Positions 62,116 through 62,400 of a stretch of 64,000 bases of DNA are shown here, piece by piece; positions within the stretch are counted from its first letter, which is position 1, and every line of letters begins with the position of its first letter. Below the pieces are notes generated by a model, which ran no database searches, was not told where the DNA came from, and was given only the letters and a program-made list of their open reading frames with translations. A program made the translations under genes and the position numbers. The stretch is from assembly GCF_058153355.1 (NCBI RefSeq), contig NZ_CM177019.1, one strand, 5' to 3'.

Positions 62116-62400
62116 GTAGGCCGGATAAGGCGTTTATGCCGCATCCGGCTGTCGTGCGCCATTGCCTGATTCGACGCTGACGCGTCTTATCATGCCTACA
62201 AATTCCCGCGCCATCCGTAGGCCGGATAAGACGTTTACGCCGCATCCGGCAGTCGTGCGCCATTGCCTGATGCGACGCTGACGCGTCTTATCATGCCTAC
62301 AAATTCCCGCGCCATCCGTAGGCCGGATAAGGCGTTTACGCCGCATCCGGCAGTCGTGCGCCATTGCCTGATGCGACGCTGACGCGTCTTATCATGCCTG
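62116..62400. repeat. Tandem REP/BIME array (about 3 copies of a 101-bp unit)
   Basis: Unit GTAGGCCGGATAAG(G/A)CGTTTA(T/C)GCCGCATCCGGC...CATGCCTACAAATTCCCGCGCCATCC recurs with period 101 bp starting near 62116, 62217 and 62318. Confidence 0.8.

Follow-up and report, generated by a model that had tools for sequence, protein, structure and literature searches.

What is the repeated DNA that separates mhpE from mhpT in the 64,000-nucleotide stretch analysed here (the window), how did it come to be there, and does it matter to the genes on either side? An earlier note on this stretch had described three tandem copies of a 101-bp REP/BIME unit, each with a few substitutions. The periodicity was reproduced both by Tandem Repeats Finder (TRF), which reports 62116-62399 as 2.8 copies of period 101 (97% matches, 0% indels, score 540), and by a repeat search, in which the copies start at 62116, 62217 and 62318, spaced by exactly 101 and 101 nucleotides. 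Four substitutions separate unit 1 from unit 2, and a single one separates unit 2 from unit 3 across their 82 shared bases; repeat length and identity are far beyond chance. As the third copy is partial, ending within its Z2 REP at 62398/62399 without the terminal TAC and the 17-nt linker, the "three copies" are to be understood as three Y-Z2 REP pairs, or as 2.8 units.

Architecture and surroundings of the array

Each unit consists of an inverted Y REP (35 nt), a 12-nt linker, a Z2 REP (37 nt) and a 17-nt linker, and the array between mhpE and mhpT (array 1) reads Y-S-Z2-linker, Y-S-Z2-linker, Y-S-Z2 cut short, a total of six REPs (Table 1). The linkers are constant, 12 nt within pairs and 17 nt between pairs, and the alternation is strict, the Y copies lying on the - strand and the Z2 copies on the + strand. 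All three Y REPs are within 1-2 substitutions of the published consensus and the three Z2 REPs within 2-4. In BIME-2 elements, Y and Z2 REPs alternate in orientation, with a short S linker inside the pair and an s, l or r motif between pairs (PMC3333891), and we assign array 1 to this class with near certainty on its alternating Y and Z2 REPs, its constant linkers and its tandem copies. The REP/BIME call of the earlier note was therefore correct, and the alternating Y and Z2 REPs and short S linker refine it to BIME-2. The remnant at the left edge resembles both ends of a Z2 REP without the interior, and the last 9 nt of the linker in the second array of the window (GGGCGAAAT) match the K-12 form of the left-edge linker.

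Table 1. Positions of the two arrays, their parts and the neighbouring genes in the window
Feature	Position	Strand	Remarks
frmA	57908-59017	+	
frmB	59111-59944	+	
BIME-2 array 2, 2.2 units	59945-60161		Between convergent frmB (+) and yaiL (-); inverted relative to array 1
Array 2 Y REPs	59960-59993, 60060-60094	+	
Array 2 Z2 REPs	60010-60046, 60111-60147	-	
Array 2 linker, 16 nt			ATTTCGCCCATRARCC
RF02564 match, array 2	60013-60091	-	75.8 bits
yaiL	60171-60710	-	
mhpT, 3-hydroxyphenylpropionate transporter, 403 aa	60812-62023	-	Downstream of array 1 in the direction of transcription
Unique spacer, 77 nt	62024-62100	-	From repeat to mhpT start codon; includes GAGG ribosome-binding site
Left-edge remnant TGCCTAC and short linker GGACGAAA	62101-62115	+	Kept in all strains examined
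BIME-2 array 1, six REPs	62116-62399		mhpE-mhpT spacer; from TRF, repeat search and dissection
Y REP, unit 1	62116-62150	- (consensus)	5'-GTAG on +; 2 substitutions from Y consensus GCCGGATGCGGCGTGAACGCCTTATCCGGCCTAC
S-type linker GTCGTGCGCCAT, 12 nt	62151-62162, 62252-62263, 62353-62364		K-12, same position: GTCGTGCGCAGA
Z2 REP, unit 1	62163-62199	+	3' end ATCATGCCTAC; 3 substitutions from Z2 consensus
17-nt linker AAATTCCCGCGCCATCC	62200-62216, 62301-62317		Between CTAC and GTAG; identical or nearly so in K-12
Y REP, unit 2	62217-62251	-	
Z2 REP, unit 2	62264-62300	+	
Y REP, unit 3	62318-62352	-	
Z2 REP, unit 3	62365-62398	+	Cut after GCC, without TAC, fused directly to TGGGATGGG; rare right-hand junction
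RF02564 matches, array 1	62119-62196, 62220-62297, 62321-62398	+	70.9, 75.4 and 81.5 bits among the three
mhpE, 4-hydroxy-2-oxovalerate aldolase, 339 aa here	62433-63452	-	Upstream of array 1

Descriptions of BIME-2 arrays go back to the early 1990s, and the element itself is already known: it belongs to an old repeat family and is present at the same locus in the reference strain K-12. In K-12 MG1655 (NC_000913.3, about 374.9-375.4 kb) the locus, the gene order, the 101-bp unit and the left-edge TGCCTAC are shared, and the units are 84-94% identical to those of the window. The K-12 array has 4.4 units, nine REPs and a spacer of 577 bp, whereas that of the window has 2.8 units, six REPs and a spacer of 409 bp. 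The two also end differently, K-12 in a Y REP joined at GTCGTGC^TGGGATGGG and the window in a Z2 REP cut at GCC^TGGGATGGG. Within the unit, the S linker has GCCAT in the window and GCAGA in K-12, the Z2 loop GCTGACGC in place of GCTAACGC, and the Z2 foot ATCATGCC in place of ATCAGGCC.

The gene names given in the earlier note (frmA, frmB, yaiL, mhpT and mhpE) match annotated relatives. Array 1 is extragenic, with the stop codon of mhpE (62433-62435) on one side and the start of mhpT (62023) on the other, and the order on the - strand is mhpE (63452-62433), array 1, mhpT (62023-60812). The distance from the first REP to the stop codon is 16 nt for frmB, 23 nt for yaiL and 34 nt for mhpE. Liang, Rudd and Deutscher reportedly found in 2015 that translation is down-regulated where a REP lies no more than 15 nt from the stop codon; at 16, 23 and 34 nt, all three distances exceed this limit, and we rejected such an effect here. 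A simple scan for a sigma-70-like mhpT promoter between the array and the start codon (62024-62100) found none, a result that leaves room for a promoter that may be weak or activator-dependent, and a literature search for the mhpT promoter gave nothing useful.

Some smaller features of the locus deserve mention. The mhpE product has 339 residues, compared to 337 in K-12: at 62433-62441 (-) the K-12 stop codon TAA is TCA, and the frame continues with Ser and Cys to TGA. In genomes with the allele of the window the product has 339 or 341 residues. A weak terminator-like hairpin of seven pairs (three G-C) followed by CATTTTGTAT is found at 62419-62440 (-), overlapping the mhpE stop codon and just upstream of array 1 in the direction of transcription. 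The region contains about as many terminator-like sites as expected by chance, and this stem seems not to be conserved in K-12. Open reading frames run through the repeat, among them one of 76 aa that crosses array 1 at 62134-62364 (-). In two RefSeq genomes a "hypothetical protein" is annotated inside the equivalent array; such calls on repeat DNA are most likely spurious.

A related two-copy array after frmB had also been proposed, with a unit of about 102 bp. The array is real and related, but its period is 100/101, with 2.2 copies at 59945-60161 and 91% matches by TRF. In the repeat search it pairs with array 1 as an inverted repeat, the 63-66-nt arms showing 86-92% complementarity. It too varies among strains, the frmB-yaiL spacer measuring 124, about 225 or 325 bp. 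The two arrays (62105-62380 and 59951-60097) form inverted repeats that flank mhpT-yaiL about 2 kb apart, and could in principle mediate inversion of this segment; the gene order is unchanged in every genome examined.

Variation among E. coli genomes

The statement in the earlier note that the copy number of such arrays differs among strains was borne out by genome comparison. Of 5,426 complete E. coli genomes, 4,922 matched a query that consisted of the two unique flanks only; insert size was read from 58 rows, sampled at regular intervals along the ranked flank matches. The commonest insert, of about 44 bp, holds one REP (28 of 58 rows). Inserts of about 144 bp (three REPs) and about 246 bp (five REPs) occur in six rows each, those of about 346 bp (seven REPs) in five and those of about 446 bp (nine REPs) in 12, and one row has the form of the window, 284 bp with six REPs. 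Insert sizes across genomes differ by multiples of 101 bp. Sequences from each size class gave the plan of the common allele, (Y-S-Z2-linker) x n with n = 0-4, followed by a last Y REP with the junction GTCGTGC^TGGGATGGG, hence 1-9 REPs. The allele of the window is rare: flanks at least 99% identical occur in 18 of the 5,426 genomes. Its array ends in the Z2 REP cut at GCC^TGGGATGGG (GCC^T), and its inserts measure 80 bp (nine genomes), 183 bp (two) or 283-284 bp (seven), corresponding to two, four or six REPs.

Between the window and its closest relative the array has five differences, and the immediate flanks are identical. That substitutions accumulate faster in the array than around it was considered and rejected, as over 3.8 kb the counts are 5/284 against 81/3,516 (Fisher p = 0.68). 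Searching the species-representative genomes with the mhpE-side flank gave only two matches, a contig ending inside the BIME and an E. coli-like contig in a MAG, and is uninformative on other species. Such arrays break short-read assemblies; a public draft contig of Escherichia sp. E1V33 (NZ_RHJI01000028.1), for example, breaks off in this BIME at 72 nt from the flank on the mhpE side.

One strain carries an insertion sequence at this locus. In E. coli 2013C-3252 (NZ_CP027442.1, 6209-7761), IS621, a member of the IS110 family with a bridge-RNA recombinase, lies inside this BIME-2, within a Z2 REP at ATCAGGC-CT-AC and with the CT core on both sides. The natural target of IS621 is ATCAGGCCTAC (PMC11208160). 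Z2 copies of the window (62189-62199 and 62290-62300) read ATCATGCCTAC, with one mismatch to this target at position 5, and exact targets occur elsewhere in the window at 30293-30303 (-) and 43951-43961 (+).

Origin of the array and of its edges

We suggest that array 1 was amplified in situ within the mhpE-mhpT spacer. The 101-bp steps in insert size, an identical unit in strain MRE162 and the one-base difference between units 2 and 3 all argue for this origin. In MRE162 the extra unit matches both its neighbour and the FDAARGOS_1077 unit at 100% identity, and its identity with the neighbour points to recent duplication in place. The REP pairs would be non-autonomous elements processed by the REP-associated tyrosine transposase TnpA_REP/RAYT, and units would also be duplicated or lost by unequal recombination or slippage, giving the allelic series of one to nine REPs. 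The REPIN/RAYT system of Pseudomonas fluorescens and the E. coli REPtron with TnpA_REP have in common with array 1 an inverted REP doublet as the unit of amplification and the conserved GTAG/CTAC tetranucleotide. As far as the window was examined, it contains no RAYT (TnpA_REP) gene.

The edges of the array are unusual. In vitro, TnpA_REP binds REP, cuts at TGCC^TGAT (iREP I), at GCC^TAC (iREP II) and at C^T sites in the linker, and can also join the cut ends (PMC3333891). The right junction, ...ATGCC^TGGGATGGG, equals an array of the common type minus the 62 nt between the iREP-II site CC^TAC and the linker site GTGC^TGGG, and the left scar, TGCC^TAC, equals a Z2 REP minus everything between iREP I (TGCC^TGAT) and iREP II (GCC^TAC). 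The C^T positions of the unusual junctions fit the cleavage sites of the enzyme in vitro (PMC3333891), and both edges might be natural footprints of cutting and joining by TnpA_REP (RAYT). We regard this as doubtful and give it low weight, because the edges are explained equally well by deletion across a microhomology of one or two bases. If true, the series of one to nine REPs would be a natural experiment on the remodelling of BIMEs by RAYT in vivo, and could also show tuning of mhpT relative to mhpE by copy number.

Proposed function

The best explanation overall, to which we give a probability of about 70%, is that array 1 is a BIME-2 amplified in situ that serves as a local hairpin terminator/stabiliser and as a gyrase site. 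By analogy with other BIME-2 arrays, transcription of the mhp operon on the - strand would produce a series of stable RNA hairpins directly behind mhpE. There they would stop 3'-5' exonucleases and so shield the mhpABCDFE message, and would partly terminate read-through into mhpT, in part via Rho and more strongly with more copies. At the DNA level, the Y REPs may be preferred gyrase cleavage sites and the array possibly a local barrier to the diffusion of supercoils. Array 2, between convergent genes, would act as a two-way end structure for frmB and yaiL.

The best-studied model for the dual terminator/stabiliser role is REP325, a BIME-2 of six units that separates the tandem genes yjdM and yjdN (bioRxiv 10.64898/2026.03.23.713779). 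When it is deleted, the upstream transcript becomes less abundant and the downstream one more so; the array gives a ladder of hairpin-ended RNAs, and termination is partly sensitive to bicyclomycin, with the full array only (bioRxiv 10.64898/2026.03.23.713779). Across the genome, expression is biased towards the upstream gene where REPs separate tandem genes, and is higher for both genes where they separate convergent ones (bioRxiv 10.64898/2026.03.23.713779). The mhp array resembles REP325/naRNA4 in its Y and Z2 REPs, its short linker, its tandem organisation and its place between genes of the same direction. REP325, however, has 12 REPs at another locus whereas the mhp array has six, and the orientation of the mhp array relative to the flanking transcription is opposite to that in the naRNA4 model. 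Counting against the role, Harris et al. saw much variation from locus to locus and, for mRNA half-life, no effect of REPs in general. BIME-2 elements are enriched in gyrase cleavage sites, mainly within their Y REPs and irrespective of transcription (PMC6379681), and lie mostly at borders between supercoiling regions (PMC10592627). In the accessible part of the supplements to the gyrase study (PMC6379681), neither mhpE nor mhpT is named.

Folding of the array region gives -167.7 kcal/mol on the mhp strand (z = -7.5 against shuffled controls) and -164.5 kcal/mol on the + strand (z = -8.25). Single REPs fold with -21.3 kcal/mol for Y and -15.3 kcal/mol for the Z2 of the window, compared to -21.9 kcal/mol for the Z2 of K-12. 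In all five complete or partial Z2 copies of the two arrays, ATCATGCC replaces ATCAGGCC, a G-to-T change that abolishes the third stem pair at a cost of about 6.6 kcal/mol; this weakening of the hairpin speaks against the terminator/stabiliser role. The variant is also found in array 2 of other strains and is thus a polymorphism, not a peculiarity of this genome. The transcript strand has 77 C and 92 G in 284 nt and, being without C>G skew, is not a classical Rho loading site. The missing skew, together with the presence of only one REP in half of the sampled genomes, argues against a strong role specific to this locus. As 28 of 58 sampled genomes have a single Y REP, the multi-copy array is dispensable and any effect quantitative at most. 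We hold the chances that a terminator/stabiliser role operates at the mhpE-mhpT locus to be evenly balanced; most likely, the array would only fine-tune the neighbouring mhp genes.

The principal rival is that the array is a selfish or neutral repeat, a by-product of REP/BIME amplification and decay with no function specific to this locus; expression of its neighbours would be unaffected as far as selection can detect. This reading has the same origin as our best explanation and differs from it only on the phenotypic effect. Several observations suit it: E. coli genomes range from one to nine REPs, with the single-REP state the commonest in the sample; substitutions within the unit, such as AAGACG in unit 2 and the G-to-T change of Z2, fail to maintain pairing in the stem; and the array of one strain has been split by IS621 with the flanking genes retained. 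Against it, REP325, a comparable array in tandem context, alters the expression of both its neighbours (bioRxiv 10.64898/2026.03.23.713779), and at least one REP is kept at the mhp site in every genome examined. We consider the neutral case rather unlikely. The locus offers a clean natural series, from one to nine REPs between two genes of one pathway, which could be used to test the recently proposed view of REP arrays as tunable terminator/stabiliser "dials".

Other identities for the array

Array 1 could be taken for a small RNA gene. The naRNA4 proposal (PMC4550694) would make of each Y-S-Z2 a 77-nt RNA with two hairpins that acts with HU to link DNA cruciforms and compact the chromosome, and Rfam family RF02564 (naRNA4) is indeed matched in both arrays above its gathering score of 59.5 bits. 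There are four such matches, one per Y-S-Z2 pair, at 70.9-81.5 bits, and RF02564 is the only Rfam family that reaches the gathering score anywhere in the window. The family was, however, defined from one repeat of REP325, the six-unit BIME-2 (PMC4550694). Because the model rests on a single BIME-2 repeat, any Y-S-Z2 pair will match it, and a match is uninformative on function; the matches restate the BIME-2 identity, and the naRNA4 label is no evidence of a small RNA gene. In addition, the strand of array 1 that has the naRNA4 sense is the + strand, antisense to mhpE-mhpT transcription (-), the only transcription evident here; the - strand scores 49-58.5 bits, below the threshold. A preprint of 2026, which shares the author Sankar Adhya with the original naRNA4 study, found no effect of REP325/naRNA4 on nucleoid volume, no HU-dependent contacts between REPs and no stable ternary complex (bioRxiv 10.64898/2026.03.23.713779). 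We judge a naRNA4-type gene to be very improbable. BIME-2 arrays do match the Rfam naRNA4 model, and may be mislabelled as small RNA genes or as CRISPR arrays.

A BIME-1 of the RIB/RIP type, which would bind IHF and bend the DNA between mhpE and mhpT, has next to no chance of being correct. It derives from the general statement in the earlier note that such arrays can act as IHF/gyrase binding sites and mRNA stabilisers. Gyrase sites and mRNA stabilisation are documented for the BIME-2/REP class (PMC6379681; bioRxiv 10.64898/2026.03.23.713779), but IHF binding is a trait of the L linker of BIME-1, which joins Y to Z1 across a long linker with an IHF site and occurs in single copy, never tandemly amplified (PMC3333891). 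Although a BIME-1 likewise has an extragenic Y REP with an inverted partner, in array 1 the partner is Z2 (37 nt, with a GACGCTGACGCGTC centre) and no Z1 REP is present, and the linker is 12 nt, compared to roughly 35 nt for the L motif. The IHF consensus WATCAANNNNTTR has no match in either array at zero or one mismatch. The two true BIME-1 elements of the window (Y and Z1 REPs, linker about 25-35 nt; 8808-8915 and 43929-44023) do have one-mismatch WATCAANNNNTTR sites in their L linkers, at 8859-8871 and 43972-43984. At the level of sequence a BIME-1/IHF element is refuted, and the IHF remark does not apply to these arrays.

Lastly, a palindromic repeat of about 35 bp at a regular period of 101 bp invites confusion with a small or degenerate CRISPR array, and the warning that software could make this mistake was reasonable; array 1 is not one, because the intervals between the repeats are themselves repeated (from one Y REP to the next there are 66 bp, 96-99% identical between copies, that hold a second palindrome and provide no unique spacers), the repeat fits the REP consensus, K-12 has the same array at a locus that is not a CRISPR, and the Rfam scan of the window gave no CRISPR family. 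RRS elements (222-bp repeats) were considered because 2.2 x 101 = 222, and set aside as a different family at other loci.

Lineage and other features of the window

The window is about 92-98% identical to K-12, mostly 95-96%, over all alignable segments (measured over 10378-64000), and the mhpT and mhpE flanks are about 95-96% identical to all major E. coli groups. Taken with the 18 of 5,426 genomes whose flanks are at least 99% identical, this suggests that the window comes from a deep-branching minority lineage, possibly a cryptic clade. Relative to its closest relative the window is mosaic, with identical stretches beside others that are 2-3% divergent.

Further REP-like sequences are a single diverged pair, Y-like and Z2 with a 16-nt linker, at 30242-30333, and an isolated REP-like palindrome at 32319-32355. 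Between malZ and acpH, a segment of about 1.6 kb that is missing from K-12 contains a 481-aa open reading frame (15561-17006, -) with no Pfam match. At 32377-35117 (-), where K-12 has only the ykiA pseudogene, there are two open reading frames, one of 151 aa (Pfam SF0329 family) and one of 762 aa with a C-terminal DUF2773. The yaiT homologue at 49450-52338 (-) is an intact autotransporter of 962 aa, the K-12 copy being split by IS3.
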